DNA of 63,966 nucleotides, filler included, from Sluysia triapertura (lineage: Eukaryota): NCBI GenBank assembly GCA_046118255.1. It is 5 parts of 5 records of this genome, joined end to end, with 100 filler letters (N's around TTAATTAATTAA, not from the genome) between each part and the next. Parts side by side here need not be neighbours in the genome. Positions count along the whole stretch, not along the records: positions 41,382 to 52,992 come from JBJNIA010182823.1; 4 more parts are not named here. One strand, given 5' to 3'. Each line of letters starts with the position of its first letter. The first letter of the stretch is position 1. Shown here piece by piece: positions 11,630-53,111 of this stretch. The notes beneath the pieces are model-generated. The model saw nothing but the letters and a program-made list of their open reading frames with translations, had not been told where the DNA came from and made no database searches. Both the position numbers and the translations under genes were made by a program.

Positions 11630-11964
11630 TAATTGTGTGAAAGGTGAGTAAAGTAAATGGAATAAAATGAGTTTAAAATGAGTTCACCAACGTACTGGGC
11701 TTACCAGTTAGGGCCAGCCGTTGGATTTGGTGTATAAAGTTTCAATAAATATAATAATGGAGCCTTAATGTTTAATCCTACCTGGAGGTAAACTTTGCTA
11801 ACATCTGCTAAGATTGTCAAATGTAAGTAGATCTGAAATATTTAAAGGAATTTCTCGAGAACTGTAACTATTAAAAATAAATCACACTTTTTCGTAGATT
11901 CCGTTATATGGAATCAATAAAATATATTTTACTTCCTAGAATTAAATTCTAGTCTTTAGAAAAC
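11630..11964 (+). repeat. Structured interspersed repeat, copy 2 (truncated by gap)
   Basis: AGTTCACCAACGTACTGGGCTTACCAGTTAGGGCCAGCCGTTGG, CTGGAGGT, GATTCCGTTATATGGAATC, CTAGAATTAAATTCTAG. Confidence 0.9.
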
Positions 11965-12179: not shown

Positions 12180-13305
12180 TGGTTGATAATATGTTTTGTA
12201 CCTAATAGAGTTTGGCAAACCGTACCATGTAGTTTCAAAGTTGTAATTGTCGGTCTGATTCTCAAAGAGGTTTGGATGATTTGTGTGAGAGAATGTTTGG
12301 TTGTGAGATTGTGAATTGATTTGATGATGAGAGAGAATAATATAAAGATTTCAAAATTTTTACATTACAATAACAAAATAACAACAATGACAATGATGAT
12401 GATAGATATGAAAATCAATACTTAGGGTAAAGTTTTTAATTTTTATTTATTATTTTATTAAAATAATAAAGTTATTTCAATTTGAATAATTTTAATATTG
12501 TGTCATTTTTAGCTAATTTTTTAAACTATTTTTAAGGTGAGTTGATAAGAAACTCCCTATTCAATTTTTGTAAAAATATTATTTTCAAGATAATTAATTG
12601 AAAACCATTTCATGTAATTTTTGTTGAATATTACATTTAAATTGTATTTGATTTTCATTTTAAGGAGGATTGATAAGAGACTCCCTACGCAATTTTTGTT
12701 AAGACTATATTTGATTTTTAGCTATTTTTAAGATAATTAATTGAGAGACATTTCGCATAATTTTTGTTGAAGATCACATTTAAATCATATTTTATTTTCG
12801 GTTATTTTTAATGTGAATTGATTAGAAACTCCCTACGCAATTTTTTCTATCAAAATATTAAGTATTTTAACTCTAGAAATTACTGTTAAGTTGTTCTTTA
12901 AAGTTATTATTACCAAGAATTTTATTGTAGTCGTAATAAAAAAAATATTTAAATAAAATAATTACTATTAATTTTCTAGATATTTATATTGTTAGTGTCT
13001 GTTGCGTCACTCCTGGTTGTTTTGTCATAATTAGATTGTAATATAATTGATTTTTTTGTTATTTTAGTTGTTTTCAGTATTTAGTAAAGATTCTTATTGA
13101 TGATAAATTATATTACGATTTTTTGTACATCATTGTCTTAGTTTTGATTTGATTTTCAAGAACTTAAATTTGGTGTAATAGTTATTAATATTATAAAAGA
13201 ATATTACTGCCGAAATATATTCGATATACTGACTATTTAAATTATTGAGGTTCCTTTAAGCTAATCAAGTTAATATTGAGTCATAATAGCTAATAATTTT
13301 AAAGT
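12180..13305 (+). repeat. Interspersed repeat homologous to ~22700-23402, probably part of the Polinton-like family
   Basis: Shared blocks GTACCATGTA..TGTCGG..ATTCTCAA..GATTTGTGTGA.AGAATGTTT, GTTGCGTCACT.CTGGTT and TTAAATTATTGAG.TTC.TTTAAGCTAAT..TAGCTAATAATTT in the same order. Confidence 0.8.
12530..12845. repeat. Tandem array of five ~55-75 bp units, alternating two subtypes
   Basis: Type A TTGATAAGAAACTCCCTACGCAATTTTTG at ~12542, 12670, 12818; type B GATAATTAATTGA.A..CATTTC...TAATTTTTGTTGAA at ~12589, 12732. Confidence 0.85.
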
Positions 13306-13375
13306 CGCTACATCTATATAAACTAAAATTATATTTAAAATTTGTCTTGTTTTCTGGTTATACCGTTTTGCATAT

Positions 13376-14269
13376 TCACGGATGATTAATTTCATTCTCT
13401 ATCATAGAATCGTCTGGAACTTCAGTAAAACTATCATTTGTAATGTTGCTGGCATTGATAATTAAATTTTGCAAACTAAGTTCGATTCCTAATTTTGATA
13501 AAATGGATTGATTCCTGAGACATTGATCAGCAAGTCAAGCTGGATAACCAGGAACATCGATTGTGTGGCAGTATAAGCAATTTTTTCCATGGTTGAAACA
13601 TTAACCAGTTTGAGTGGATGTATGCGGGCGGAGAGCCATCTGTAGAGTTTTGTTACCATTATAGAACGACTTGAAATAGTCATCTTCTGAATTATCCTTT
13701 GGTAATGTTGTCTCTAATGATTTTTCTTTATTAGTCATGACTAATGAATTGACATCTACTATATTTGTAATAACTAATTTGTGAAATGTTAAAATTATAT
13801 TAATAGAAATTTCTATAATTTTATCTTCCTTTGTCATTATATAATTCAAAACACGAGCATGAATAGAACTAAATCGTTTAAACTTAGGTACATGAAACAG
13901 TGCAGTCAAATTTCTCGTAATAATATTTTTTACACCTAGCTTATATACTAATTTGCAAGTATTAACATGAAAAGGTACTAATTTCTTAATAGGTAATGCT
14001 TTTAATTCGCTTTTTGAACATTGACGATATCTTATGTTCAGTGATGACATTAAATAACAGAGAATATTACAATCAATACCAGTTAAATGAGTACTCATTA
14101 AATTATACGTTATAATTTTGAATAGACATTTTTTATAATGCTCATTATTGATATCAAATTTCGTTTGGATAAAATTCATTATATCTTTTAACAAAGCAGA
14201 ATAACAATTTCTTTTAATAAATATTTCATTCAAAAATTCGTTGAATTCATCTTTCAAAATTTTCTCCAT
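13376..14269 (-). pseudogene. Intronless ORF of unknown function (222 aa open) continuing in frame past two stops into a CxxHxxxCxxC zinc finger; likely virus/Polinton-like accessory gene
   Basis: ORF track 13601-14269; same frame after TAA reads CFNHGKNCLYCHTIDVPGYPA*LADQCLRNQSILSKLG...INHP*; lies just downstream of the conserved promoter-like motif at 14445-14552. Confidence 0.55.
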
Positions 14270-14444
14270 CGCATAATTATTACTAAATGAGTAGTGAATA
14301 TTTATTTTGTCAACCAGATAAATTTTTTTGGATAAACAAAGTTACTGAATTTCAGGTTTAATTGATTTAATAATTTGGTGAAACATAATTCGTTAAATTA
14401 ATACTACCAACAATTAAAATGTAAATGATGAAATAACATTGTGA

Positions 14445-14552
14445 TGCTAGTGTTTTCTTAAACTTAAACTTATTCACTGAAAATTATCTGATGAGTCGGT
14501 TCGCCTAATATATACGCTTTATACCAAAAATGGAGACGTATTATTAGGATTT
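14445..14552 (-). promoter_or_regulatory. Conserved promoter-like motif, left arm of inverted repeat
   Basis: Minus strand CCTAATAATACGTCTCC..TTGGTATAAAGCGTATATATTAGGCGAACCGACTCATCAG; TATA-like and TCAG initiator-like words; inverted copy at 15567-15665 and third copy at 51246-51352. Confidence 0.55.
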
Positions 14553-15058
14553 AATATAATTCCTTAATTAGTGCTTAACCTAACACTCTTACTTACAAAC
14601 AGTTAAAATTGTAAAGTAAATATTTTAAAAAAGTGTTTTTATGTGTAAACAGTGTTTTTGTATTTATGTGTTGTTAATATTATTATTATTATAATTATAC
14701 TTAAATAAAAAATATAAAATTCAAAATTAAATAGAATTATTTTAATTAAAAAATTAATTTGTTTTAATATAGTAAAATATAAATAATAAAGAAAATGTTT
14801 AAATTAATTCTGGATCTATTATTAGTAACAAAGAAAAAATTATAATTATTTTAAGAAAATATTAATTTATTATTACACCAGTATAAATAGAAGGATAAAA
14901 CAAGTAAAAAATCAGAATTGGAATTAGAATTAAAATTGATAGTTAAATTGATCAAAGTTTTAGAAAAGTGATATTCTGAGGTCATTTGGATCCAGACTTA
15001 ATATTTGATTTTTCAATGTCAAAAAACTTCAAGTAATTTTTTATTGCATAAGTTTTAT

Positions 15059-15485
15059 AATATCACCTTAATAGGGATATTTAAAATATACGTAAAATCA
15101 AAGATAAATTTTTCATCAACACCTTAACGAAAGGGTTGAGTAATCTTGATTTAAAATTTGATATTTAATCAACGCTGTTGAATTATTTAATTTCCATATT
15201 GATATTATACAATTGTTTTGTAAGGATTTAGTCGATTTGTTAACTTTTATAAATAGATTATTAGAGAGTTTAACAGACTTGTGTTTTTTGTGAAAAATAA
15301 ATCGTTAATAGAACATTAAACTACTCGTATTTAACTAAATAAAACGATAAAATACTTTTCTGTAACAACACCTTAATCTAAAGAAGGGTTGTGTAAAATC
15401 ATAAAATAACATTTTACATACAACATCTCATTAAGAGAGTTGTGCAATCTATTTTTATTTAACAACACCTTAATAAAAGGGTTGT
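15059..15485 (+). repeat. Array of five bulged-A hairpins
   Basis: AATATC-A-CCT-TAAT-AGG-GATATT (15059), TCAAC-A-CCTT-AACGA-AAGG-GTTGA (15116), ACAAC-A-CCTT-AATCTAAAG-AAGG-GTTGT (15365), ACAAC-A-TCTC-ATTAA-GAGA-GTTGT (15420), ACAAC-A-CCTT-AATAA-AAGG-GTTGT (15462). Confidence 0.9.
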
Positions 15486-15566
15486 GAAACATAACTAAAA
15501 TCTAACGACTTAGATAGTCAATTTGAGTTTTATTTAGTTGGACTTTAAGTTAAGTCTTAAAATTAC

Positions 15567-15665
15567 AAAACCTAATAATACGTCTCCAAGTTTGGTATAA
15601 AGCGTATATATTAGGCGGATCAACCTATCGGATAATTTGTTAAGTATAAGAAAATACTAGCAATG
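15567..15665 (+). promoter_or_regulatory. Conserved promoter-like motif, right arm of inverted repeat
   Basis: AAAACCTAATAATACGTCTCCAAGTTTGGTATAAAGCGTATATATTAGGCGGA..ATCGGATAATTT..TAAGAAAATACTAGCA, reverse complement of 14445-14552 with few substitutions and one indel. Confidence 0.55.
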
Positions 15666-18017: not shown

Positions 18018-18716
18018 TCACTTAATAGATTTTGCAATCAAAGACTGTATAAGTTTTCGAATTTGTTCTCTTTTTTCATTAGAGTTAACTTTATAGTTTT
18101 TAATAATATCTTTCATTTGAGGGATAGAATATTTTCCACTTAAAATGAGATTAATTATTTTTTCTGCTAATATTATGCAATACATTCCACAATCACTTGA
18201 ATTATTCTGTATTTCACAATCAAGAAGTTCAATGATAGTATTTTTAGCTTTTAAAATACAGCCTAATTTATGTGCAACATTATCAGCTTCCCTTCTAAAA
18301 TGAAATAAAACAAATTAAAATTACTTGTTAGCATAACTAGGCCCTAAGGAATCTAAATAAAAACTTGTGACAACATGACTAGATAGATAAAGGATCAGTA
18401 AAAACCAGTGAATACCACCAGCTCTTTCAACAGTATCGTCACTATTTACTGGCAAAATAATCCACCCAGTTTCTTTAACCGTTACAGATTCCAAAAATGC
18501 AGCTTCTTCTAAATCTTTTGGTGATAAAAATTTGATCAATTGAACTGACGAAGGATTACCTAAGAATATATTTTTATTAGTCAAATGGTAATGGTCAGTT
18601 AAGTATTCCATATAAAAGTGTATAACACTATCAGTAATCCATCCACCTTTAATAAGGCTATTATAATCACATTGACGCATTACTGAATCTTTGTAGCTCA
18701 AAATTATGTCACTCAT
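18018..18716 (-). CDS. SENP8: Sentrin-specific protease 8 / NEDD8-specific protease (exons 18325-18716 and 18018-18294; 222 aa)
   Basis: MSDIILSYKDS, WITDSVIHFYMEYL, GGIHW (His), YLDS (Asp), and after splicing the GT..AG intron 18295-18324, QNNSSDCGMY (Cys); frame open to TGA at 18018-18020. Confidence 0.93.
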
Positions 18717-19878
18717 AAAATCAATTTTTTCCTTAACCTAAGATATATTTCGATGAAGGTTAGAGGTTAGAAATATAACTTTATAAATCAAATCTGTCTT
18801 CATACCAGATATTAACAAAAAACTTAAGATAATACAAAAGTAATTTATTTTTATCAAATTTAAAATGGAATTATTTTGCATAAAAAGGTAATTAATTGAT
18901 TTACACTTTTCAATTTCATAATTTAAATCTTTGTAGTCAAAAGTTATATTTGCGTATTATATTTTTTAATTATTAAAAGCATTTCATTTTATTTAAAATT
19001 GTTCCCATCTTTACTTATTAAAGTGGAAATCATTTATAAAAAGTTACAGTTTATGTACTTATTTCTAAAATGTATCTTATAATTAATGTTTTCACAAAAA
19101 ATTTTAAAACAATTTTTATTAAATTGCTGAAGTATTTTTTTATTTGACTTGTAGTTAAATTATTTAAATTTGTTTTATTTTATTCTTTCAGATTATGTAG
19201 GAATATTTAGGACTTATTTAGTTATACATGCTTTTGAAATTTTTTAATTACATTTATAATTACGGAATGGAAAATGCAATCGGAATCAAAAATTAGGAAT
19301 AAGATTTTTTAATCTTACACTGTGGTTTAATGTACAGTGAAATTACCTGAGTAATGCACCACCTTTATATGAATTTTGAATCTTTTATTAAAATGAATCA
19401 ATTATCTGTGCTAGTTTTCATTTTAAAGCAAAGTTTTCTTAATTTAACTTAATAAATCTTAAATAATTTTTGGTGAATACTTTCATTGCATACAAGTAAG
19501 TTAATAAACGTGTTCATGTTTTTTCGTCACTGTGTGATTAATTTAATTGCAAGCCATAAATATAATGAAACAAGAAGCAAACTTAAAAGACATCAGACAA
19601 TGCTGGATGACATCGTTTTACGATAAAATGCTGGTTTCTTTGCATCCAGGTATTATCATTAAGACGTTTCAAATACCATAAGGAAGGATGAGAGGCATTG
19701 TAAATCTTACATGTACTAGTGCTGCCTTATTTGACTCACCTGACCCAATAGCAAAAATAAAAAAGTACTTAAGCTCCTTTGTTCATTTTCGCCTCGTGCC
19801 TCATGCAGCCATTATGATCTATGCTATGTTTTTATATTAAAACTTTTGCAAAAATATTTTGGTGGTGCTTTTTATAAC

Positions 19879-20309
19879 GTGAGAAAAGTGTAGAATAAAG
19901 AGTTAATTAAAATTTGCGTGAGTTCACCAACGTACTGGGCTTATCGGCGAGGGCCAGCCGTTGGATTTTAATCGTAAGAAAAGATGCTTAACTCGAGTTA
20001 TAAAAGTTCTTAACACTTAAGTTCTGGAGGTAAATGTCTTTTAGATAATTAATTAAATATCAATTATAATAAATTTAAATGAGAATATTACGTAAATTCC
20101 GTTACATGGAATCGAATAAAATATAGTTTACCTACTAGACTTAACTTCTAGTATGTGAAATCTTTGAAATAGATTGATTTTATGATTTTAAAGCTATAGC
20201 AAAAAATTGAAACAAGTTTAAGTTTTATTATAACAATGATTGTAGATAAGAAATTAATAATAAAAATAATAAAGTTACAATAAACTAAATATAATTAGTT
20301 TAAATATAA
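19879..20309 (+). repeat. Structured interspersed repeat, copy 3
   Basis: AGTTCACCAACGTACTGGGCTTATCGGCGAGGGCCAGCCGTTGG, CTGGAGGT, ATTCCGTTACATGGAAT, ACTAGACTTAACTTCTAGT; 3' part matches reverse complement of positions 1-150. Confidence 0.9.
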
Positions 20310-22429
20310 AGAGATTTTTAAAATAATATTTTGTCTGAGATCGTTATACGATCCAAATAAAAATTCATAAATTTAAGTAAATTTTACTATTGATATTCTA
20401 CAAATATCTGATCTTAATAAAAATCAAGCTAACGTGATCCAATAAAATGATTCAAATGTCTGTGTTGAAATAGAAATTGTCTTCTTTAAAATTAATAATT
20501 AGACCTTGAAGTCAGATTAAAACAAAAGGATATATTTCGATAAAACAAAAATTTAGTAAAATAAAAATTTTTAATTAAAATAACTGGTTCTCATTAGCTT
20601 AATAATTTAATTCAAAAATAATTTTAATAAAAATTTAATTTAAAATAATTTAATTTAATAATCTCAATAAAAATTAAAAACATACTTTCCAATTTATAAA
20701 TTAATATTTCCAATAATTTGTAAATTAATAATTAATAAAATTAACACAAATAATAGTAAAAATTAATAGAATATTCACACAATCATAAATTGTTAGTCAT
20801 AGTAAAAATCAATAATTAATTCACATAAACACAATCATAAATTGTTAATCATGATAAATTGTTAGTGTTAGTCATCATTACAATAGATTAAAGCTCCGAT
20901 AAGGTTTAATCTATTACCCTTCAATATATCGGGAACTTAAAAATGTTACAAATAATTAGAAATTTAAGTATATTTTAAAATTTCAACTTCTAAAGTTGAA
21001 ATTGACCCTCTAAATATATAATTTACCAATGAATATTTTCCAATTTTTTGAATTGCTGCGAATTTCGAACCGTTACTAAAATCTCACAATTCATCAAACA
21101 AATCAAATTAAAAGGATATTTCAAAATGGCGATGTTAAAATGGCGATTTTCATTAAACGGATGCTAGTTTATATAGTAGTCATCAGCACGTAGGAAAGAA
21201 TGATGAATAATAATAATATTAATAATAAATAAACTCATCTTGTTTGACCTAGAATTTAAAAATTAAATTTTTAAATATTAATAATCACCTCACTTGACAT
21301 GTGAATATATTTTTCTTCACATGTAATAATAAAATAATTATTGACTAATCATTATTTATTCTTGGTATAAAAAAGTCGTCGCAAGAAATTGAGGACACAA
21401 GTGAAAAGCAATATGTTGTTTGTAGTTAAAATGAGCTTAGCAATCGTTTTTTGGCAATAAAAATCTGTTCGTTTCAGAAATCTTGGCAAATCAAATCAGT
21501 TGGTAATATAAATCTTCACTGATATTTAATCCGCTTGCTGGAAAAGTTCAAGAATTATGTATAATACAATTTGGTGGAATTCTAATTAGATTTAATTCCA
21601 GTGTCACCTGAACAAAGAATTTTATTTGATTTGCGGTTGAAAATTTTGAAACCATCAGTAAGCTTTTTATGTTAAGTTTAATTTCGGTTAGGAGATATAA
21701 AAATAACATAAAATCATTTTTAAACTCTTATTTTCATTTTAGAAATATTTTCTATTATTATTTTTATTATTATTTGGAATAAACTGTAATACACATTTAT
21801 TTTCATTCTTTATTAATATATATTGTAGTTTTGTCTTTATTTAGTTAATTTCTTAAAGTAATTATCAAGTTAACGGATCTAAGTTTAATCGAATATTTGA
21901 ACATAATATTTTAGTTGATCTATAGAATCTGTAAGTAATATTAAAGTAATTACTAAGTTAAAGAAGCCAAATATTTTATTTGATTTTTAGAATATATAAA
22001 GTAATGACAAATAACTAGACAAAAATAAACATAAATTCACTTATATTACGTCTTTTTAATAAAATAAAAATAAAAATTAAAATTATGGAAGTAAATCTTT
22101 TAGGAATTACATATGAGAGAGTTCTTTTCCAGAATTAAGCACTGTACTAAGCAAGAGATTAACTTTTAACTTTTATAGGTAATTAATATAAGAAAGTTAG
22201 AATATACGTTATTTGTCAGAAAAAACTCTCAGAAGTTTTCTAAGTACAATAGACTACAGATTCATAGTTTTTGTTATTAATTACAAGAAAAGAGTACATA
22301 TTCGCATATACTTTAATTACAAGAAAAGCTTTTTAAGTCTATGTGCTGTTACTTACGAGTACGTCTCCTTAGGATTAAAGCGTACATCGCAAGTGGACAT
22401 TTAGAATTAAAAATCAAAGTATAAGAAAA

Positions 22430-23770
22430 AACATAGCAAAGTGAATATGAAATGATTGCTATGGAAGAAGAGAATCTAGAAGTGAGTTTGAAATGTTTGC
22501 GGAGTGGTTTGTTTGAGAGCTTAAACATTTTCCATAAGAAAATTGGGTGTGGATAACCAAAAATCAATTAAATTCTGAAAACTAAAATTAAATTCACTAT
22601 TTTGTATGTATGTTAACAATAATAATGATTATTATATTAATGCGAAAATTAATTTAAGTAAAAGTAGATTGAGTAGAGTAAAGGAAAATAATAGATAATC
22701 GTAAATCAATTTTTCGTGTTTTGTATTTAATAAAGTTTGACAGTCTGTACCATGTAACTGTCGGATTAATTCTCAAGGAATGTTGCACTGATTTGTGTGA
22801 CAGAATGTTTAATCAAAAAATTTGGGAATAATTGGATGATGAGAAAATTTAAAAAGGAATACCAAAAAAATTTTACATCACAACAATAACACAACAGAGT
22901 CAGCAACGATTAATAATGCAAATGAGAAGATCCATGCTTTAACTAATTTTTGAATTTATTTTATAATTAAAAATAATATTATTTTGGGGAGATTTCATTT
23001 AAATAGTTTTTGTTTTTTGAAAATTTTATTTGATTATTATTAAGAAATAAACGTGAATAATAATTAACATTTTTCTTAGTGTTTGTTGCGTCACTTCTGG
23101 TTTCTTTAGATATACTGTTATGTTCTTAGAAATATTATAAACATTATTCTTAATCTTGTTATTTAGTCATTTTTAGTATTGTTTAGTGGAGATTTATAAT
23201 AATAATTTGTATTTGATTTTTGTTTAACCAGTAAATTATTTTGTTTTTATTAATTTGATTTTTAAAAACTTAATAATCATTATTATCAGAATAAGAGAAT
23301 TACTGAAAATTTATACTTGATATAATGAGCACTTAAATTATTGAGATTCTTTTTAAGCTAATTACATTGATATTGATTTATCGTAGCTAATAATTTCTAA
23401 AGACGAAACAAATACTTCAAAAAATACAAGATAAAAGTTTTACGATTCAAGAGATCTGGTTAAATAATTCTTCGTTCCTTCGTCATTATTGGTTTATATT
23501 AACATAATCATTCGTCACGATTCAATATTTTCTGAGTGGAATTTAGCTAATTAATTCTTAGTCATTCATAAAAAATTTGAACAGTATGTCGAAGTTGTGT
23601 TTGCTTTAAAAAGAAACATATAGTTTGAATGGGTTTATGAAAAGAAAGCCAAATTTTAATCAATTCTCAATTTTACAACGTTAAAATTTTCAAATTTAGA
23701 TTGATGAAAAGATAATGAATTGCATATGAAATGACTACCACGAAAGAGGAGAATCTAGAAATGAATATCA
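22430..23770 (+). mobile_element. Decayed fragments of the Polinton-like family
   Basis: GAATATGAAATGATTGCTATGGAAGAAGAGAATC (~22443) and GCATATGAAATGACTACCACGAAAGAGGAGAATC (~23722) match the minus-strand segment 50741-50783 upstream of PolB; 22700-23402 matches 12180-13305. Confidence 0.5.
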
Positions 23771-23948
23771 ATAAAATGAAATATCAATAAATGTGATGTG
23801 TCAAAAACCAAAATCATATAAACAAATATACAAACAATCATTCATTTAAAATTCTTATAACACTAACAAAACTGAACCAACCACTCATGACTACATTCTC
23901 ACATAATGATGCACTCTTTAGCAGTTTCCTTTGAACTAACTTCTAAAG

Positions 23949-29200: not shown

Positions 29201-30172
29201 AAGAAATGGTTTCAACATGAAATTACTGCCAGACTTAATCCAATGTTATACTCGAATAGACAGTGTGATTGTCAGAATTTCAAATCAGCATTAATCACTT
29301 CAAACTTAACAAAAATTACTGAATTAATTAAAATAAATATACTTATTCACAACTTTTAATTAACTTGTTATTCCTTAAATTAGTGGAACGATAAAACAAC
29401 GATAAAGCACTTTTAACATGGGCAATAAAGAACAATATTACGAATTTAAATGCAAATAAAAATACATGCTTAATTCATAACAATGTTAATATACATAATT
29501 AATTTTTGTAATTATAAACGATGATGTTATTCAATTGCCTTCATATTGTTAATAATATTCCTTTGCTTCATTAGTTTGTTTGTATATTACATATTTATAA
29601 ATAAGCACACACAAAATCAACTATATAATTCGTTTAAGACACAAAATATTCGGTGTGTTTTAATTTTATTCAATATGTATCTTTTTAATGAGTTGTTCAT
29701 ACTAGTCACATACATTATGACTTTATCCATCACATAATAGATAAACAACAACCAAATCATGGAGACATTTATGAAAAGTGGAACTTTATAGGAAATAACA
29801 TAGGTAATTTGTCGACATGGTATAAAGAGTTAATTATATAATTAATATAATTGGATATAATAATAATAATAATTAATTTCGTTTAATTTCAAGTTTAATT
29901 CGAAAATTTTTTTAACATAATAACAATATTATTATTATTCACAAAATACAAACAATAAAGATATAACAATTACAATTATCAATAAAGTGATAAAATGGTG
30001 CCGGAAAAATTAATATCAATGTATTTTTATGAGTTTCATTTACTTCTGATACAAAATCNNNNNNNNNNNNNNNNNNNNNNNNNNNNNNNNNNNNNNNNNN
30101 NNTTAATTAATTAANNNNNNNNNNNNNNNNNNNNNNNNNNNNNNNNNNNNNNNNNNNNCATCATCATCATCA

Positions 30173-40978: not shown

Positions 40979-41842
40979 CTGCAATACTCACAATATGATG
41001 TAATTTATTTTGAATATTACTTTCTCCAGATAGTACAGACTGACTTTGTTCAAAGCTGATGAAATATGCATCGATGGATCTTGATTATACAAAAGTTCAA
41101 ATTTTCAAGTATCACAGTCAGATATAGTGTATAGTATAAAAAAAGAAAAGAAAGATTGATAATAAGGATAAAAGAAATAATAATAATGATAACAATTATG
41201 TGGTTATTATGTTTATTAATGCAGAAATATTTATGTTGAAATTTATTATGAAATTTTATTATGAAAATTATTATAAAAGTTNNNNNNNNNNNNNNNNNNN
41301 NNNNNNNNNNNNNNNNNNNNNNNNNTTAATTAATTAANNNNNNNNNNNNNNNNNNNNNNNNNNNNNNNNNNNNNNNNNNNNAGGTATTTAATGAGTGGGT
41401 GTTTTGAGTTGTTGAAATGAATGTAAGAGTTTATTGAGTTAGGAATGTTAAGATATGGGTTAATTTATTGTTGGATGTAGTTTGGTGAAATGTTAAAGTT
41501 GTATCTTGTTGTTTTATGGAATGAGTTGAGTGATGTTGTAGTTGTAGAGTGTGGTTGTAATACATTTTATTTCTATTTAGTTATTTTAAATTTTGACTTA
41601 CGGAGTTGGTCACTACATCAAAGATTTCAAAATCTTAATGGTCTCAAAGTTCACAAGTGCAAGGGAATTTTAAATGTTTTAGATAATCTCAAGTTACTTT
41701 AAGGATATCAAACACTATAAGGGTCCCTGGGATCTCTAAGTTAAGCTTTAGTGCCTAAAATGACCACAGATGTTTTATTATGTCATATCTATCATTTTAT
41801 ATCAATTCTCCATGCAATGTTTCAAGAAAAGCAATTGTTAAT

Positions 41843-41900
<58 letters not shown>

Positions 41901-42666
41901 GAGAACAAAATATTTTCATTACATTTTTAATAAATGTCTTAGTGAAAGCATGACGAACGAATCATCTGAGAAGATTCGATCACATATTTTTATAAATTAT
42001 TCAACACAAACCTTGCAGGATGTACATTATACACTGCGCCAATCAACAATAAATTCCAATAATGCTACGAGAAATAAGAACCATCAGTAAATTTTCTAAA
42101 TAAGATTGAAGAATTTCAGCAAATTTATTCATGTTATTCAAGATCAAAAACAAACGAATGTTAATCATTTTAATGCTACGTATTTAGGTACCTAATTTAT
42201 TAAATAATGTGCTTATTAGAAATTTTGTGGTTTTAATGAAACTTTATTTAAATTTATCATATTTTTATATTTTATTAACTTATCTAATGTCAAATAAGAA
42301 TGCAGAATACAACCGCAGTACTTCATAAATGTGTGAATTAATGTAACCAATGAATAAACAACGTCATCTCGAGGAAAGTTTCCAACTCTTAAGAGTTATA
42401 GCATTATTTCTACATGCCAGCTTTTATTAGGTGTGCGAGGCTTTTAATCTTATAGCGTGCAAAAGATAATTCTGGAAGCGAGTCCACCTAACGGAAACGT
42501 TTTATATCTGGTCGAAGGTGGTATATTAAGCTTTTAAGAAGTAATATAATTCTACTTTAAGAGAGTCATGTATTTAATTATGTGAATGGCTACGTTAACA
42601 GTACTCAATAGTTTTGATGCTAATACGTCAAAAATTATTTAATTATTTATAATTTATCAGATTTTG

Positions 42667-42786
42667 AGTTAGCCTTTTTACGGTCTAACTTTCAATAAAA
42701 AATATTTTAAATTAGCATTTACGGTCTAATTATGCAAACTTTCTTTTACATTTTATGATATTTAGCTAGCCTTATTACGGTCTAGC
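42667..42786 (-). repeat. Array of three bulged-A hairpins
   Basis: Minus strand AGTTAG-A-CCGT-AAA-AAGG-CTAACT (42667-42690), AATTAG-A-CCGTAAATG-CTAATT (42710-42731), GCTAG-A-CCGT-AAT-AAGG-CTAGC (42765-42786). Confidence 0.85.
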
Positions 42787-43565
42787 GAGGATAAATGATA
42801 TTTTAGTATTTAATAAACAATTACAAACTCTCAGACCAAGAAGAAATTTTGTACAAAGTGTAAATATAACAATACAATAATGATAATCAGTTTAGCACTT
42901 AAATCTTATTGATCTAGTGCAATAAAGTTTATATAGAAGTTAAATTAGCCAGTTAACTTAGACCACGTGAAAATAAATTTAATATTTTAAGTAGATTTTA
43001 ATTTTCCTAGTTATGGTGAGAATATAAAACTTATTAAACAAAATCTTACTTTAGCATGGTACATGGAAAATATTTGACTGGATTTTTCTATGATGATTTT
43101 TGATATTGTTTCGCTCTATGGTTTGTTGAAAATTTTCTCATTCTTATATACAAAATTTTCAATCGCCACATTGCTTTATTGTCTTATATTTTGAAAAATA
43201 ATCCATTTAAATACATTTTTTTAATTTAACAATTTAATTTAATTTATTAAACTTAATTGATTTAATTTATTAAAGTTTCTTTTATAAATAAAATTTATTA
43301 AATTTATTTATTTATTTTGTTATATTTGTTAGGCATAATAAAGATAAATAATTTAATACCAATAATAAAATAAATATAATAATAAAACCAATAAAATAAA
43401 TGTAAATATGTTAATGATGGATCATAAACGTGTTAATGTTAAATTTACAAGTACAATCTCGCAAGTGCATACAAACAAAAGAATAAAAGAAGATGACTTG
43501 TAAAAATAACAGAAATCACAATAACAATAATATAATTATTATATATTTTAATGCGATGATGTTAA

Positions 43566-43709
43566 CTCACTACTGGCCGCTGAAGTAATCTGCCATTTTT
43601 ATTCGAAATTCAGTAGCTGCTGACGTAGTAGTAAGTTTTTTGAAAGAACAACTTTATTTGTGTTGTCATCAAACCGTCGCGATTAAGAATTTTTAGCGGC
43701 CAGTATGAG
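43566..43709. mobile_element. 144-bp MITE with TTAA target duplication (piggyBac/Kolobok-type)
   Basis: TTAA-CTCACTACTGGCCGCT ... AGCGGCCAGTATGAG-TTAA inverted termini. Confidence 0.85.
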
Positions 43710-43951
43710 TTAATGATATTGTGATATTATTATAAGAATTACTATTACAATGGAATTTATAATAACAATAACTATAACTCATGACAATTATGTACAATGA
43801 CTATGTTTGTTTTTTGAATGAGTCAAGTAGTTTATCTAGCGTTTTGTTAATGTAAGAAATGTTCGTATGTGTTTGTAATTTTGATGTGATTTCTGTACAA
43901 GAAATATCAGAAAAATTAATTCTATATCAAATTTAACTGGAATAATATTTA

Positions 43952-44410
43952 CAGTGGTGGCCATATTATTAGACTAAAGACCATTTTTTTAATAAAATCA
44001 ACATTTTTCAAGGATACTATAAAACTATTAATCAAAAATGTATAAAAACATTGATACAAAATTGTAAAATATTGGAAAATAACTACTTTCTCCAAAAAAA
44101 TTCTAGTGAAAGTAAAATAATAGATAAAATTACTGAGATTCAAAAGATACAGAAATTTTATTCATGTATAATTATAACACAATTTATTACAAATCAAATA
44201 TGTATTTTGTTTTCTCTCCTTTTTATCCAATAATTTCCTGATCCTTAAAGCCATGCCATGGATGAACTTGGGTCACAAGTCTTTGATCTCGTCATTGTAA
44301 TGCCAATACTTTATCAGGGTTTCAATCAGTTCCGTCCTGGTGGATGGTTTACATGAATCTCCCACGGATTCATGTCTGGAGAGTTTCCATGCCAGGCTAG
44401 CAAATATTAA
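43952..44410 (-). mobile_element. Tc1 element 3' end: transposase C-terminus plus terminal repeat
   Basis: WHGNSPDMNP, KPSTRTELIETLIKYW, GMALRIRKLL..KTKY; TA-CAGTGGTGGCCA terminus at 43950-43963. Confidence 0.8.
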
Positions 44411-47400
44411 GAAAAGCAAAGTAAATCATATTTTTCCTGTTTTAGTCTAATAATTTAGTTTAATAAAGATAAGATAGATCCACAATCAATTTTACATCAC
44501 TGCATTTGAATAATAGCTTCTAAAATAAAAGATGAGTTATTGGTTTTAAATGATCCTTATATATTTAGTTTTTTCATAAATGATATAATAGATGGAATGA
44601 CCTTTGTCAACACCCATTACTACNNNNNNNNNNNNNNNNNNNNNNNNNNNNNNNNNNNNNNNNNNNNNNNNNNNNNNNNNNNNNNNNNNNNNNNNNNNNN
44701 NNNNNNNNNNNNNNNNNNNNNNNNNNNNNNNNNNNNNNNNNNNNNNNNNNNNNNNNNNNNNNNNNNNNNNNNNNNNNNNNNNNNNNNNNNNNNNNNNNNN
44801 TCGAATGGATTACTGATGTAAATAAATTAGTTTTACATTTACAAAATACTGATATGTAAAATTCTTTCGATCATTCAATGCATTATTATAGTTTGTTTTA
44901 ACAATATACTGATGCTAATTTAAATGTTAAATGAAATGATTAAAGATAAATTATTGGATACTTCAAATTATGATAAGAGCCATTCAAAACATTTCAAGAT
45001 ATAATTGGTAAATTTAAAAATTAAATTAAATTATTAAGAATGAATTTTTGATACCAAAAACACTTATTAGATATATTAAGAATGAAGAAAATGAGTTTAA
45101 ACAATGTTATTTCCCTTTCCCACGCTACTTACTTCTGTGTTCTTGAAACTATGTTTATTTAAACAAGATTATCAATATAAAGAAAAGGTTATTTTAAACA
45201 ATATATAAACAATATTGAGATTTATTCATTAATTAATAATAATTATTATTTTTATTATTAGATCAATTAAACGAAATATAAATTAATATATTTATTTAAC
45301 TTTTCAAATTTTCTTTACAAATGCAAGTCCAATAATTATTGTTCCACATTTTGAACCATTTCCTTGGAAAATTTCCAGGGTATAAAATTATTGAATTAAT
45401 TTTATTGCAAAATTTATCTATTTATTAATTAAAGTAAAACAATTAAAATATTAAAATTTATATTCATAGAATAAATATTTATTGACATATTTTAATATTT
45501 TTCATATTTTAATTCTTAATGCAATAAAATTGAAGTAACAATTTATGAAGTTTACTTATTTTACAAATATAGCACATCATACAGTGTAAATTTATTATTT
45601 GGAGCGACAAAATTACTAATGCTACCCTTAATCCACTAATTTATTTAATTCTTTATAGAAGGGTTTATTCACAGAGAAAATAAATGACATTTTATTTAAA
45701 AATATAATGGAATAAAATAAATCTGTGGAAGCCTCCTTAATGATCATCATCCACTATTCCTCTGAATTTAATTTAATTTAAATGAGGGCTTTCCAATTTT
45801 TTGAAATTAATTTTATTTTAATGTACTATTTACTATTTTAAGTAAATAAAAAATAAATTTTTAAATAACGTATTAAATTAATTAACAATCACATATCATT
45901 AGTGTTTTAAATGAATCCAAAATAATATCTACTGTTCAAAGTAAATCTTCTTAAAAAATCGGATTAAAAATAATCTAAATTAAATTAAATCAATAAAGAT
46001 AGCCAAAGAAAAATGAAACTACTTTTAATATTATTATTGAACCATTTGAAACTGATATTTTTTAAATTCAAAATCAATTTAATGAATCTTTTTCAACAAA
46101 ACTCTTTAAGTGTGTATTCTCAGAAAAGATAATTTTATTTATTTGGTTAGTTATTGTCCTAATTTAATGTATAAAACTATTAAAAAGTTGATCTCGAAAA
46201 GTCATTTGATATTCAATTAATAAATAACAAATTTTTGTTCAATAAAATTAGGGGAATATTACATTATGACCAATAATTTTTTGAATTCTATTTTATGATA
46301 ATTTTTCTATGATGAAGTCCTCCTTCGATTAATTTTTTTATATAATTCAATTCGTATTATTAATATTTATACAATACACATATTATAATTATTATTTCTT
46401 CTATATGTTAACTTTCCTAAAGTATCGTTTTGATCACAATATAATTTATTATAATATTTTTTGAGCTATTTCTTTGATAATTTTAAAATTTTAATTTAAT
46501 ATTTTTTAATATTTAAATTATTAAATTATAACTTCTATAAAATATACAATTTTTTAAGTAAAACATATTTTACAAACCTTTGTAACAACATAATAATTAA
46601 TGGTTTTATCAAATAATAATTTTCAATAATAATATTAGTTACAAATAAAAATTGAATTATTAAATGGCTTTCCATTGGTTGATTGATTAGTAAACCAATA
46701 AAAACTTAACAAAATAAAATTTGCAAATGTTTATTAAATATTATTAGTAAAATTATTTTTATTATTTGTAATGTTTTCCTCGAAACATTTATCTTAAATT
46801 TGGATATTAAAAAAAACATAATTATTTTCAAATACATTTTACTGACAGAAATGAGTAAACAAAATTCTGATAATTCGAATTAAATGTTTAATACCGGATC
46901 TTCGTCATTGGAACTCGGTGAAGCTGGTGTTCGAATTGATAAATTTACTGTGTCAATGTGTTAGAATATTTTGTTTTTAATTTTTATAATTTAAATTACG
47001 TTTTTTAAATTATATTTTAATGTAAGCTAATTATGTTGTTTAAAAGTACCAAATAAAAAAGAAATTTTTATCATAAGCAATACAGGTTTTATTTTTCTCA
47101 ACGTTTGCCGCTTTATTCTACTTATTTCTGCAAAAGAAGTGGTATACTTCAGTATTTTTGTAATAATATGTTTCAGATAGTCAACAATGTGTAGTTTTCT
47201 TTACTGGATCTGATTTCTTTGATATTTCGAACAAGAACTGACAAATGTTGCGATCTATATACTTGTTTGAGTAGTCATTTGCAAGATTTTATCTTTGAGT
47301 AACTAATCTTGACGATGAAAAACAAATTATTTGAATATTACCACTGTTTTTATTGAATTTAATTATTATAACCAATTATAAATTTACAAATTTTTAAATT

Positions 47401-48479
47401 ATTTTTTAAAAATGATATTGTTCTTCAAGTAATTATATTATTATATTATATTTATCAATGTCTTTAGGAAAAGTAATATTTTTGCTAATATAGCTGATTA
47501 TTTTCTGTACAATAAAATTGTTAAATAAAAAGTTAGATAAAATGAAAAGTTCAATTTAATAATAAATCCCCTGATATAATGTTTTATTTATTAGGTTTAG
47601 TAACATATTTTATGTATTCATCAATTTATAGTACTATTATTTCTAATATACTAAATTTATGGAGTTAGTATAACTATTTTTGATTTTAATAAGAATAAAT
47701 AACCAATTAACTGATTTGCTACTGTGTCACCAAATAACAGTTAATTTAACAGCAAGACAAATTCAGGTGTTGAATTAAACTTATTTTTGTCACTATTATA
47801 TCACTTAGCAATTTTAGAAGAAATTTTTTGGGTTATTGATTTATTAATATTTATTGTATCTGCTCATGAATGGAACTTATGATATTTGCACGGGCTTTAT
47901 TTAATATAATCAAAGTCAATTTTAATGGTCACTTAATCTGACAATCGACTATATTTATATAATTTATACAATGTATAATTTTATTTATTTCATGCCCTTG
48001 ATGGTTCCTAGGTTCTATGCTTATCGCAGTTTATATAATCCAATGTATATCAAATCCTATAGCTGTGACGTTTATACTATTTAAGATTTGTATGACCGTA
48101 CGAAGAGATCTCTATCTTCGAATAATACCAAATTAATTGTGTAATCTTGTTGTTATTAAAGATAACATAAAACCACCAATATGACTATGATTACATTTTC
48201 AGAATAATAGACAATTGTTTTCACATCATTTATATATTGTCACAAACCTTAAGCTCCTGTAAGAGTTATAGTATTAGCAAACATATATAATATACATTTT
48301 TACTAATGTTGAAATCTTAAACGACAATAAAAAATAAGATAAAAATCAGAATAAGATAAATATCATTATAAAATTCGTCATCAACACCACCACCATCATC
48401 ATTATCATTATCAATGTTAAGAAAGTAGCGTCATATGCTACATTTTGATTCTTCTCCATCATTGTTTGAGACTACAATT

Positions 48480-50400
48480 TTGCTTGATTTGATCTGCAGA
48501 ATAAATTGTACCATTTCATAGTTAGTTTCTTTCATAGTGACTCATTTGGACTTATTTTATTGAGTAGTACTAGATAATAAAGAATAGTATTAGAGCCTCA
48601 AAAATATCTATTCAATATTTTTTAAAACCTAGCTATTTATATCTTGAAATTTAGTACTATACATTGGATGATTTGTATCATGATTTGACATATCCAATAA
48701 TTTCATTTAATAAAGTATCTAAATTAAGATTAGTGCATTTTAAAGAGAAAGCATCAGTATAACCCGTCATAATGTCAATCTCACAATTAAATTGATGATA
48801 ATAATTTTCTAATTCTTCATATTGTAATTTGGTCTATATAACTATTTCTCTTCCTAGTAAAGCTATTATTAAAGTATCAGCAACTTTAATTGAATTTTAA
48901 AACTGACTTTACATAATTAAGTTGTTAGCGGTGTGATAAAATCTTACATTAGTATATTGTTTTAAATTATCTACAGTTTCATCGTAAGGAAAATTGATTT
49001 TAAAGTTTTAAATGATTTTGAATTATAATCAATATATTTTTTAAAAATACAAGTTTAATTAAATTTAACTGTTCTATGAATTTTACAAACCGTTGTTCCT
49101 AATTTCATGTGCATTTGTAAGATACGCCAATAATAATAGTGCATTATGAGTTAATATCAATGTTTTAACTCTAGAATTTTGTGAACTTTTATAATCAAGA
49201 GCAAAAGGTAAGTCATCTAACTCATCGTATACATGAATTGGAATAATCAAGTTAGCCTATTTCACTATTTGCAGTATCTGTATTTGGTAAATTTAAAATT
49301 TATTTATTTAATTTGTTTACATCATAAATCTATTCGAAGTCATTATTTATGTACAATAAACTAGTTTTATTATCAGCTCGTGCACCTCGTACATCATTTT
49401 CAAAAAACTAAACATATCATAATAAGTTCAAACCATTAATTCATCATCTTCCTTTGATTTAAGTGCCAAAGTCGAACTTAAACCGGGTAATGACAAAAAG
49501 TTGACTAGATTTAAATAATCTTCATTTATTGCTGTTTTCCTAAATTCTTCAAAAATATCAATCAATAAATGTGTCTAATTTTAAGTAGACCATCATGCAA
49601 TCAACTAAATTATCACATTTTAAATGCATTGTTATAATGGTCAACATTTTGGTGGCATTTATTTAAAATTCTTCAGTATAGAGAGTGAATTATCGAAAAA
49701 TGCCTTTTGATTTTACTAACTATTTAGATATCGTGCTAGATATATTTTCTAAATTATCAAAACTTATCACTAAAATGGTCATGATCTGTAACAAGTTTAT
49801 CTGCTGGTTTTCATACATGTAACAAGATTTTGCATTATAAACTGGAGTTGTTATCTGCATAACTATAATGTCCGTTTTTGGGCTTATTAATAGTAAACCT
49901 ACATCTAATGGTTCATGTCTTTGTTGACATTTTTAGTTTGATAGTAATACAGATTCAAAATCTTTGAAAATAACAAATGTGATAAGTAAATTCACATTTG
50001 TTATAAATTGGTGTAGTATATATAATATATATCTCTTTCAAGATTTTTACTCATAACTTAGTATACTTATTAAATGAGATCTTTCCTAAATCCTCTTAAC
50101 CACGACCTTGATTGCTACTAATGGAACGTATAAATTACTAATTGTTTCACTATTGAACTTATTTATATATAATATATGAGTAAATGGATTTTTAAAATAT
50201 CGTCATTATCACGGATATCATATTCATCATTATCATTATTTAGTCGTTAAAATTTAGATATATTAAATATAGTCATGGAGAATTCATCCATAAAATCTAC
50301 AAAATCATATTTCAAAATTGATAATATAAAAAATATAAATTATCATTATTCTGAACATTAATAACATTATGAGCATATATAATTTTGATTCTGAAAATGC
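48480..50400 (-). pseudogene. Heavily decayed protein-primed family B DNA polymerase of Polinton/Maverick (adintovirus-like) type
   Basis: Minus-strand fragments in canonical order: VINVQNNDNLYFLY (~50325-50366), FVIFKDFESVLL (Exo I, ~49942-49977), LVTDHDH, KSKGIF, VYLKLD..LIDIFEEFRKTA, FLSLPGLS, DELDDLPFA, ILQMHMKLG..CKIHRTVKF..IFKKYIDYN, LLDMSNHDTNHPMYS; many stops, frameshifts and deletions. Confidence 0.85.
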
Positions 50401-51245
50401 GACGTTCTCTTAAATATGATTTATTCTTAAAAATTTTGTCTGAAATTTTGTTATAATAAAATACAACCCAATAACTACGTAACTCTGTGCTTGCTTGTAT
50501 TTTTAATTTACTGAATCTATTATGAAATTAAAAAATCATTATTATGCATCATAGCTGGTTCACTTACTTACCATTCTTTAATTTCATCGTCCTTAATGAA
50601 CTTAAACTAAGCTCCTCTCATAATATTTCCTGATTGATTTTTAATTTCTCTTAAATATCATTTCGTTAATATAATATATATTTTTATGACTGATATTTTT
50701 GTGATTATTATTTAAATCACTTTCTAAATTTAGGTTTTTTGATTCTCCTCTTTCATAGCATTCAACTTATATTCAATTCATCATATTTTGTCATTCTAAG
50801 TACAAAAAATTAAACATTCCGTAATTAAAAATTAATTAAAATTTGACTTTGTTCAATATTAAGGCCTTCTTTGCATGAACTCGATCAAAACATACCTTTC
50901 ATCGAAAGGTCTTTTAAAACAAAAACACACAATTTCAAGTTTGACAGAGTAATCCGCATTTAAAAGTTAATTAAGTTAATTAAGATTTTAATTAATTAAT
51001 CTATTTTTAGGCTTAATTTTATTGTATGATAAAGGTTTTATTAGGTTCTAAGATAATTTAGTAATTTATAAGGCATTCAGGAGGCTCCAGATAATTTAAT
51101 CTTCGTCACTTTGATTCCTGTTTCTGCTTCTTTATATTAATTATCGATGTATCAAACTAATCTTTATTATTAGCAACAATCATCTCATTTCTCAAGTATT
51201 TTAAATATTTCAACTACTTTATAAGATTACTCAATTATCCTGAAT

Positions 51246-51352
51246 GTGCAAGTGTTTTATCTAAAAGGCTTAACAAGTTACAAAATAACTGAGGGTCGAT
51301 TCGCCTATTATAAACTGTTTATACCAATTCTGAGTCGTGTTATTAGGATTTA
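51246..51352 (-). promoter_or_regulatory. Third copy of the promoter-like motif, pointing toward the PolB remnant
   Basis: Minus strand AAATCCTAATAACACGACTCAGAATTGGTATAAACAGTTTATAATAGGCGAATCGACCCTCAGTT; TATAAA about 33 nt before the A of TCAGT. Confidence 0.55.
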
Positions 51353-51487
51353 AATTTATCAAAAAACTAAACTAAAATTTAGTGTATTAACACTTGATAA
51401 CTAGTTTTTATTCAGTGATGCTGAGACTTAAGCTTAATAATTCGTAAGAACTTTATATTTAATTATTTGATATTTTAATCAAATGAC

Positions 51488-51604
51488 ACTAACTTTCTTA
51501 AGGTCTAGTTCCATAAAAATTATAAATAACACAAGCCTTCTTAAGGTCTTGTACAAAAATACTTCAAAGATTTTAATTAATTACTGTAGCCTTCTTAAGG
51601 TCCA
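51488..51604 (-). repeat. Array of three bulged-A hairpins
   Basis: Minus strand ACTAG-A-CCTT-AAG-AAAG-TTAGT (51488-51509), ACAAG-A-CCTT-AAG-AAGG-CTTGT (51531-51552), TGG-A-CCTT-AAG-AAGG-CTA (51587-51604). Confidence 0.85.
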
Positions 51605-53111
51605 GATCGAAAACTAATATAATGATTTTAGAAATTACACTAGCCCTAATAAGAAAATTAAACAAATTTTCTGTAAAATAAAGAACATTTTTTAAAATTA
51701 TTATTATTTTAAAATTTAATAAAAATATTTATTTTAAATTTCATTAAAAATATTTAGATTAATTTTGAAATCTATTAAACTTTATTTTTAGGTTAAAATT
51801 AAAAATTTAAAAATATTTAAATTAAAATTCTATTAATTTATCTTATTTCGCTAATATAATAAAAATAATTATTTTATAAAATTACAAAATTTACAAAATA
51901 CAAAAAATACAAAACAAAATTAAGGCTTCAAGTCTACTTAAAGGTCGATAATGTCTTAAGTTATCTAAGGTTAAAATCTACAGAGGCACCTTCATGCTTC
52001 TAAAGATTTTCCAAACCCATATGAAGCTTCCACAAGGTCTCAATATCCTCTATGATCTTTGGAACCCTAGATATTCCACAATTGTCGACATTTTTATAGA
52101 TATTTTTATAATGTTTATAATGTTTTATCTATCATACTTCGTATCAAATTTTCATTCATTTTATAGTTCTGTATATTTCTCACTCATTTCCTAATCCCAA
52201 CGGTCCTATGTTCTTAACCGATTTTAATGCCATATCGTATTAAATGGGTTCTGTATCTTATCTTAGAAATTATATTTCAGAGCAAATTCGTTTTAAATGA
52301 ATCATAAATTTTATATAACTTTATAGAATTAAAACATTTTGTCTATTGATTTATCTATGAATTAATACTACTATAAATAAATTTTCGAAATATTATTTTT
52401 ATACTTTTATTTTAGTTCAACCACGATTTTGAAGTTTTCCCAAAAAATTTAGTATAAAAATAATAATTAAAAACCAAAATAAGTCTCATTCGAGTTAATG
52501 TTAATATTTTAATGTATACCACTTTTGTATGGCTCTATTGTAACTAACAATTAAATAGTTTTATCAGTAATAATAATTATAATAATTTTATTTTAATTTT
52601 TTTATATTGAAACAAAATAAAAGTTGTAATAATTAATAAATAATTAATACTATTAATCATATAGATCATTTTAATAGTTCAATTGATGAAACTATACATA
52701 ATAATAAACAACAATTATTATATTTTACAAATTGAAATATTAAATTTAAAAAAATAACGAATCAATTTACGCTAATTTTCTTCTTTTTGTACATTACATA
52801 ATTAAGAATTTATTTATTGTTTTTTAATGTAGAAATTTATCTAGAGAAAACAACAACAACAATAACAATAACAAAAATAATAATAATAATAATAATAATA
52901 ACAAAAATGTTTTATTATGCTTTTATTTTACGTTATATAATAATTATCTTTCAAAAATAAATTGCCTTCGAGTAACTTATGTAACTAGATATNNNNNNNN
53001 NNNNNNNNNNNNNNNNNNNNNNNNNNNNNNNNNNNNTTAATTAATTAANNNNNNNNNNNNNNNNNNNNNNNNNNNNNNNNNNNNNNNNNNNNAGTACACA
53101 CTATATCATAT

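Follow-up and report, generated by a model that had tools for sequence, protein, structure and literature searches.

A decayed polymerase gene and its neighbors

The stretch of DNA analyzed here (the window; 63,966 nucleotides, filler included) consists of five joined contigs of an invertebrate genome and is AT-rich, with ~24% GC. Contig D (41382-52992) bears the module at 51246..51604, here called D51, and contig B (12065-30058) bears the comparison module at 15059-15665; with joiners at 30059-30158 and 41282-41381, the two are on separate contigs. Host genes, such as a calmodulin-binding potassium-channel exon, are found on contigs other than the module-bearing B and D. The coding features around the modules are as follows.

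48530..50711, minus strand: decayed relic of a protein-primed PolB gene; the profile maps from 49980 to 48530, and the N-terminal domain is weak up to 50711
50717..50938, minus strand: very abundant segment, likely the PolB 5′ end, directly upstream of the recognizable PolB N-terminus; homologues at 22425-22496 and 23589-23779
44462..45008, plus strand: second PolB relic, internally deleted and inverted relative to the first, across an assembly gap
13601..14269, minus strand: ORF Y, 222 aa, starting ~250 nt downstream of the TATA at 14523

The PolB relic lies downstream of D51 in the sense orientation, as an earlier note on this DNA had placed it. Its reading frame, with X at stops, has 14 protein matches, the best (E 1.5e-15) to a pPolB, and among eight matched proteins that were scanned, five contain DNA_pol_B_2 and four an endonuclease VII-like domain (Endonuclease_7). 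Pfam missed the relic in all nine frames, and one frame searched by tblastn against phages gave no match. The alignment of the N-terminal domain, which extends up to 50711, ~600 bp downstream of the TATA at 51323, is weak (z about 4), and at the same weak level it includes a KRR motif at roughly the position that the motif has in relatives.

For ORF Y, searches at near and at longer lengths gave no homologue, Atlas gave no match, and the single-sequence structure model is unusable (pLDDT 42). Two decayed copies of a minus-strand coding region that continues ORF Y, at 12192-13312 and 22717-23410, are without Pfam match. Downstream of the TATAAA sequences at 15596 and 42506, Pfam searches of the flanking frames recognized nothing. 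This DNA is heavily decayed, and in it no rve integrase was found by tblastn with 287 ORFs of related loci or by Pfam on 21 flanking frames; the same searches of the window found no packaging ATPase, cysteine protease, or jelly-roll capsid, in DNA where PolB itself was missed by Pfam. Polintons end in long terminal inverted repeats with AG/AGT-type tips and target-site duplications; neither AGAGAGAG nor AGTAGTAG occurs in the scanned regions of these contigs, which may be cut.

Several unrelated features were also noted. At 18018-18737 there is a Ulp1/SENP8-like protease gene split across two reading frames, probably a host gene with a short intron; its Ulp1-family ORF (18321-18716) is one that we take to resemble host SENP8. 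A tRNA-like fragment at the start of contig B (12099-12160), perhaps a SINE head, has no ARAGORN call; a separate repeat family with a GC-rich hairpin core is present at 2-441, 11641-11961, and 19876-20309; and a self-inverted MITE-like element of 170 bp lies at 43554-43721.

A TATA-containing stem-loop motif in five copies

The window contains five copies of a TATA-containing motif and three trios of hairpins, one of which, within 42430-43022 on the minus strand, is newly found here. In the self-comparison of the window (all-against-all local alignment), noise reached a score of 40, and only higher or blastn-confirmed matches were used. The motif copies and their parts are listed below.

51243-51354, minus strand: D51 motif copy, TATAAA at 51323-51318
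51304..51347, minus strand: D51 TATA stem-loop around TATAAA, 7+5 bp, its 3′ arm with a bulged A; Watson-Crick at 9 of 12 pairs
51243..51303, minus strand: downstream part of the D51 motif, with TAGGCG, an initiator-like TCAGTT whose start lies 32 nt from the first T of TATAAA, and conserved sequence at ~+55 to +75
42430..42539, minus strand: new diverged copy, TATAAA at 42506
15563..15665, plus strand: contig B copy, TATAAA at 15596, intact 12-bp stem-loop; nothing recognizable downstream
14443..14556, minus strand: divergent contig B copy, intact 12-bp stem-loop, without a trio on its own strand
22345..22442, plus strand: degenerate fifth copy, joined directly to the PolB-5′-like piece 22425-22496

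The third-copy motif that had been described as promoter-like is indeed present at D51, and it is more than a promoter-like string, in that it forms a covarying stem-loop. In both contig B copies TATAAA lies in the internal loop of a 12-bp stem in which all 12 pairs are Watson-Crick, and the three irregular pairs of the D51 stem are all regular in most related contigs, one of them being a double change relative to the contig B type. Since ~0.3 comparable stems are expected by chance in each shuffled window, and one unrelated example does occur in the real one, it is repetition and compensation that count as evidence, and not the stem itself.

An initiator-like TCAG or CCAG starts 32-33 nt from the T of TATAAA in three of the four copies tested and is absent in one; the arthropod initiator consensus usually lies about 30 nt from the TATA. 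A pattern for the motif gave three matches, with none in 100 shuffles, although this control is circular because the pattern was written from the copies. A profile of all five copies run over the whole window found no sixth (best other match E 0.2). Apart from the ~120-bp motif pair at 14445-14588 and 15540-15662, no long inverted match lies near a module. At D51, TATAAA is followed by CA and a T-rich tract, and a Pol III promoter for a small RNA was considered and dropped, as a T run follows directly.

Sorted by what lies downstream, two of the five motif copies lead into PolB-5′-like DNA (D51 and 22345), one into ORF Y, and two into nothing recognizable. The tie to a PolB element made in the earlier note is thus partial.

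Trios of bulged-A units upstream of the motif

The units that make up the hairpin arrays are the following.

51585..51606, minus strand: D51 unit 1, bulged A at 51601; 5-bp lower stem, 4-bp upper stem, 3-nt loop; decayed
51531..51552, minus strand: D51 unit 2, bulge at 51547; all 9 core pairs Watson-Crick
51488..51509, minus strand: D51 unit 3, bulge at 51504; decayed, with a G·T pair and an A·C pair
42668..42786, minus strand: new trio, bulges at 42781, 42725, and 42684
42984..43051, minus strand: upstream segment homologous to 15031-15098, holding a decayed unit with its bulge at 43017
15365..15485, plus strand: contig B trio, bulges at 15370, 15425, and 15467; upper stem of the middle unit doubly compensated
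15059..15139, plus strand: upstream pair of units on contig B, bulges at 15065 and 15121

Three bulged-A hairpins 135-250 bp upstream of the D51 motif and co-oriented with it had been reported, and all three were recovered on the minus strand. The arrangement at 15059-15665 is therefore reproduced on a separate contig, as had been claimed, and 42430-43022 adds a third full module. In all three trios the unit centers are spaced by 53-55 and 42-43 bp, or about five and four helical turns, and the distances from TATAAA to the last unit are 129, 181, and 178 bp. On contig B, two diverging motifs (14523, minus; 15596, plus) flank an AT-rich tract and five units. The units thus sit upstream of, or between, divergent TATA motifs, in positions where neither promoter would transcribe them.

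A bulged A is present in all 12 units, with loops of 3 to 9 nt. Lower-stem positions 1-5 are Watson-Crick in 54 of 60 pairs, with two or more Watson-Crick pair types at each of the five positions, and pairing falls to 4 of 12 at position 6. When right arms are dealt among units of the same module, the mean is 41.3 pairs compared with the 54 observed; just six of 17,280 within-module permutations reach 54, and in those six the arms exchanged are identical. Restricted to the nine trio units, the test has 42 of 45 pairs observed, a value that 6 of 216 permutations reach. The arms of each unit therefore match each other rather than a shared sequence, and in the contig B unit at 15425 the upper stem is altered at two pairs in both arms with pairing kept.

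The permutation test carries selection, as most units were first found by scans requiring a stem, and a census of left arms is less biased. All 23 ACC[TG]TAA sites were taken, unselected for pairing: at least five of six tested pairs form at 8 of the 10 sites inside modules and at none of the 13 outside. Exact stem-A-CCTT-loop-AAGG-stem matches number five in the window, compared with one in 20 local shuffles summed. Chance palindromes in AT-rich DNA could be suspected from the D51 trio, which by itself folds no better than shuffles (RNA z +1.18, DNA z -0.86) and is the most decayed of the three. With three equally spaced trios, five motif copies, and shuffle and permutation controls that refute it, coincidence can hardly be entertained, in agreement with the earlier note. 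The 15355-15490 segment folds better than shuffles on both strands (RNA z -4.2 and -3.0), and the contig B copy folds into a chain of local hairpins. For a hairpin in the first spacer, 11, 245, and 106 of 500 shuffles did as well, making it significant in only one of the three modules.

Covariation, a retained bulge, and a free loop length point to a folded form. A different reading is that the units are asymmetric sites in duplex DNA for a dimeric regulator or origin-binding protein, helix-phased upstream of a TATA in the manner of baculovirus hrs, with their symmetry derived from template switching. The five- and four-turn spacing in three modules and the position upstream of TATA fit such sites, as do the conserved ACC...GG core with its AT-rich middle and the lack of wobble pairs. 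However, the length of the middle differs by up to 6 bp between units, which would rotate the half-sites relative to each other, and the outer 5 bp of each unit fit their own partner and not a common sequence. Moreover, pairing is retained in the 15425 unit although both of its arms deviate from the core, and the stem flanking TATA covaries too. We consider duplex sites unlikely, while giving them real weight.

Three tandem repeats of 128-148 bp each lie at 12530-12860; the first of them contains, on the minus strand, the same bulged-A duplex with its loop at the opposite end, the order of the arms being reversed. The homologous stretch at 22939-23073 lacks this feature. At 42946-42965 and 51921-51946, upstream of two of the trios, the long and short half-sites of the unit occur as direct rather than inverted repeats.

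Irregular pairs reflect decay of the D51 copy

The earlier note had taken G·T pairs on the bulged-A strand at D51 as a sign that this strand is the one that folds. Those pairs do exist at D51, but one of the three units there also has an A·C pair, and an A·C on the bulged-A strand reads as G·T on its complement. Of the 84 core pairs tallied, 76 are Watson-Crick, two are G·T on the bulged-A strand, three are A·C, and three are other mismatches; the strand argument fails, with two G·T pairs on one strand against three on the other and equal folding energies. The folding strand is indistinguishable from pair counts and energies, and the hint that is left is a weak one: both kinds of stem leave an A unpaired, and they do so on the same strand.

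Related contigs give the irregular pairs a simpler origin. These come from one sequencing run, probably of the source sample, and were aligned at 80% likeness, with 40 of 156 differences listed. All four irregular pairs among the 27 of the D51 trio are Watson-Crick in 75-90% of related-contig depth, and the G·T pairs thus represent decay of the D51 copy; both G·T pairs among the 84 are copy-specific.

The near absence of wobble, together with a position that neither promoter would transcribe, suggests that DNA rather than RNA folds. Were RNA the substrate, the hairpins could belong to a protein-bound long 5′ leader from an upstream start, similar to a phage operator, or could be 3′-end hairpins with TATAAA as a variant polyadenylation signal. 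The geometry of 5 bp, a bulged A, and 2-4 bp is like that of MS2 and PP7 operators, the contig B copy forms a chain of local hairpins, and CA and a T-rich tract follow TATAAA in D51. There is also a precedent in pGKL transcripts, which end at RNA stem-loops according to excerpts of PMC6211774. Nevertheless, no sense-strand gene ends upstream of any trio, G·U is nearly absent, the units have no Rfam match, and a coding sequence starts downstream of the motif in three of the five copies, such that a role in RNA appears improbable. An Rfam 15 scan of the window gave a single match, with E 0.69 and under the gathering score. Likeness to twister or hammerhead was dropped, as by eye there is no conserved core, and Rfam gave no match.

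The module is covered more deeply than the polymerase gene

Depth in the related-contig run is not copy number, and read as depth only, it varies widely along the locus. Summed depth is ~16 within the PolB body, at 50400-50442, and exceeds 100,000 over much of 50744-51087; the motif has ~2,000 and the trio 750-2,400, whereas the gap that separates them (51389-51431) has 56. The dip between motif and trio indicates that the structured parts are the conserved ones; among the differences listed, those in the trio are borne by 26-57 contigs and those in the motif by 31-66. Just upstream of recognizable PolB homology depth jumps from ~100 to more than 100,000, and many contigs switch sequence at 50741. 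The segment 50744-51130, with summed contig depth of up to 1.3 million compared with ~15 nearby, is either among the genome's most abundant repeats or a satellite that arose from PolB 5′ sequence.

The depth jump and the switch at 50741 raise the prospect that the module is an independent, very abundant non-autonomous repeat, akin to a Helitron or MITE, that was captured by or inserted beside the PolB 5′ end. That only two of the five motif copies lead to PolB-like DNA, and that related Polinton loci are listed without the module, would agree with this. However, the abundant segment continues into the PolB N-terminal domain with its KRR motif (weak, z about 4); two different coding sequences, PolB and Y, are each preceded by a motif, the motifs being diverged paralogs, as would be expected of the promoters of an autonomous element; and no element ends were found among the five partial copies. 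We regard an independent repeat as quite improbable.

A putative structure-selected control region

We tentatively favor, with confidence a little short of even, the reading that the module is a structure-selected control region of a Polinton-like element, probably acting as single-stranded or cruciform DNA, and amplified far beyond the polymerase gene. In the duplex state, TATAAA and the initiator-like TCAG would serve as an RNA polymerase II promoter for PolB, and the divergent copy as a promoter for gene Y. Upon becoming single, whether because the polymerase displaces it or because a cruciform extrudes, the strand would form three hairpins with 5-bp stems and an invariant bulged A, and the 12-bp stem would hold TATAAA unpaired. 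A protein encoded by the element may then recognize the bulges and mark the molecule for replication or mobilization. If the region is needed in cis, it would be kept by non-autonomous copies, and copies keeping the region would be expected to outnumber those keeping the polymerase.

Several observations sit uneasily with this control region. Helical phasing at five and four turns is a trait of duplex sites that flexible single strands need not show, and template switching can yield complementary arms without selection on structure. The initiator-like element is absent in one of four copies; no integrase, ATPase, capsid, or termini were found in the window; and the module was listed at none of 56 related PolB loci.

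A more specific variant identifies the reader with PolB itself. The region would again switch by folding, acting as a TATA promoter when duplex, and when single-stranded it would loop out TATA and offer three phased bulged-A hairpins for the polymerase's endonuclease VII-like domain to act or dock on. What makes the nuclease insert a candidate is that bulges are nicked by T4 endonuclease VII, as stated in excerpts of PMC10956419. Krupovic and colleagues, however, see intein-like invasions in inserts of this type, and we consider this variant a doubtful one.

Knowledge of Polinton-like elements comes almost entirely from their proteins and terminal repeats, with few sequence handles on transcription start, replication, or mobilization. 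A testable handle, and possibly a job for the nuclease insert of the polymerase, comes from stems that covary, a bulge that is invariant, spacing that is fixed, and a TATA held within a stem-loop. If the nuclease variant is correct, the module would be an internal replication or mobilization signal, the first cis-element of such a kind for Polinton-like elements, and a massive non-autonomous expansion, in which the control region is retained and the polymerase lost, would be accounted for. Its significance is bounded by the material, which is one host with decayed copies and no intact element.

Related loci in other genomes

A search with an alignment of 12 PolBs recovered at least three viral and at least 53 metagenome loci; P0001 as the sole query found no viral locus. 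Neither the motif nor a bulged-A cluster was seen at any of the 56 related PolB loci among the matches listed, a weak negative, as many loci end near the PolB start. The nearest relatives among these matches (L012-L021) are 1-4.5 kb loci with 48-64% identity. Among 28 ORFs from seven longer loci, Pfam identified an rve+chromo integrase at three loci, a weak A32 ATPase at one, and capsid domains at two; the longer loci bearing these genes are only 29-36% identical to the best PolB match. Direct-repeat arrays are present upstream of PolB in some relatives (L023 and L044).

Pattern scans of viral contigs gave 0, 7, 1, 2, and 4 single matches; none of 14 loci fit the motif profile, and hairpin arrays were present at none of eight loci checked. 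A pattern scan of prokaryote genomes gave no matches, and neither did blastn of the contig B module against phages. Within the loci compared the module is, as far as seen, lineage-restricted. The accessible portions of the open-access literature, including PMC8502044 and PMC6431247, describe no such control region; in the accessible text of PMC8502044, the words "hairpin" and "promoter" are absent.

Three features of the related loci are of separate interest. In L044 (199-1022), a 17-nt motif is present in eleven same-direction copies upstream of PolB. The Polinton-like locus L022 encodes a TATA-binding-protein domain (Pfam TBP, E 2e-15) at 14633-15139, between the ATPase and integrase genes. 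The closest PolB relatives, at L014 (1-1250) and L016 (1-610), appear to have short AT-rich introns and repeated 5′ mini-exons.

Comparison with known systems

The element is most readily compared with animal Polintons/Mavericks of the adintovirus-like type: both have a protein-primed PolB bearing an insert that resembles endonuclease VII, and the polymerase's more distant relatives accompany rve+chromo integrase, A32-like ATPase, and double jelly-roll capsid genes. Unlike Polintons, no integrase, ATPase, capsid, protease, or terminal repeats were found in the window, and membership, judged from sequence, is unproven. The arrays in Polinton relatives are direct repeats, whereas those described here are bulged hairpins. 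Excerpts of the literature indicate that Polintons have been proposed to have a single-stranded intermediate in their replication (PMC4061559), that pPolBs possess a strand-displacement subdomain (bioRxiv 10.1101/2024.03.18.585575), and that T4 endonuclease VII nicks branched DNA as well as bulges (PMC10956419). Krupovic and colleagues, in the part of the same preprint available, interpret such nuclease inserts as intein-like invasions (bioRxiv 10.1101/2024.03.18.585575).

Bidnaviruses and the Drosophila Vesanto virus combine a pPolB with single-stranded DNA, and in the accessible text on Vesanto virus, segments share related terminal repeats before different genes, several of them PolB-like (PMC8363768), much as diverged modules front different genes here. 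Bidnavirus terminal repeats do not form hairpins of the parvovirus type, according to excerpts of PMC4061559. The best matches of the PolB described here are, in contrast, of Polinton type; Pfam matched no SF3 helicase, NS1, or parvovirus-like capsid in the flanking frames, and terminal repeats were not found. Yeast pGKL elements, whose transcripts are described in excerpts of PMC6211774 as ending at RNA stem-loops, differ in that no sense-strand stop codon lies just before any trio, in keeping with the lack of any sense-strand ORF ending upstream of one.

Baculovirus hrs consist of imperfect palindromes arrayed close to promoters, serve as enhancers and origins, and have a cruciform state that is debated; their palindromes bind IE-1, and imperfect ones are reported not to extrude (excerpts of PMC6669502). 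The module is likewise an array of imperfect palindromes beside a putative promoter. However, hr units share one sequence of ~28-30 bp, whereas the stems here vary and yet stay paired, the imperfection is one invariant bulged A, a TATA box lies inside a stem-loop, and the neighbor is a pPolB. The module is not an hr and not an Rfam family.

The MS2 and PP7 coat proteins read a bulged A above a 5-bp stem in their operators, and single-strand promoters of the Frpo type have a state set by fold-back of the strand. Both are bacterial and are single sites, whereas the bulged hairpins described here form an array in a eukaryotic element, with a TATAAA that would be unpaired when folded.
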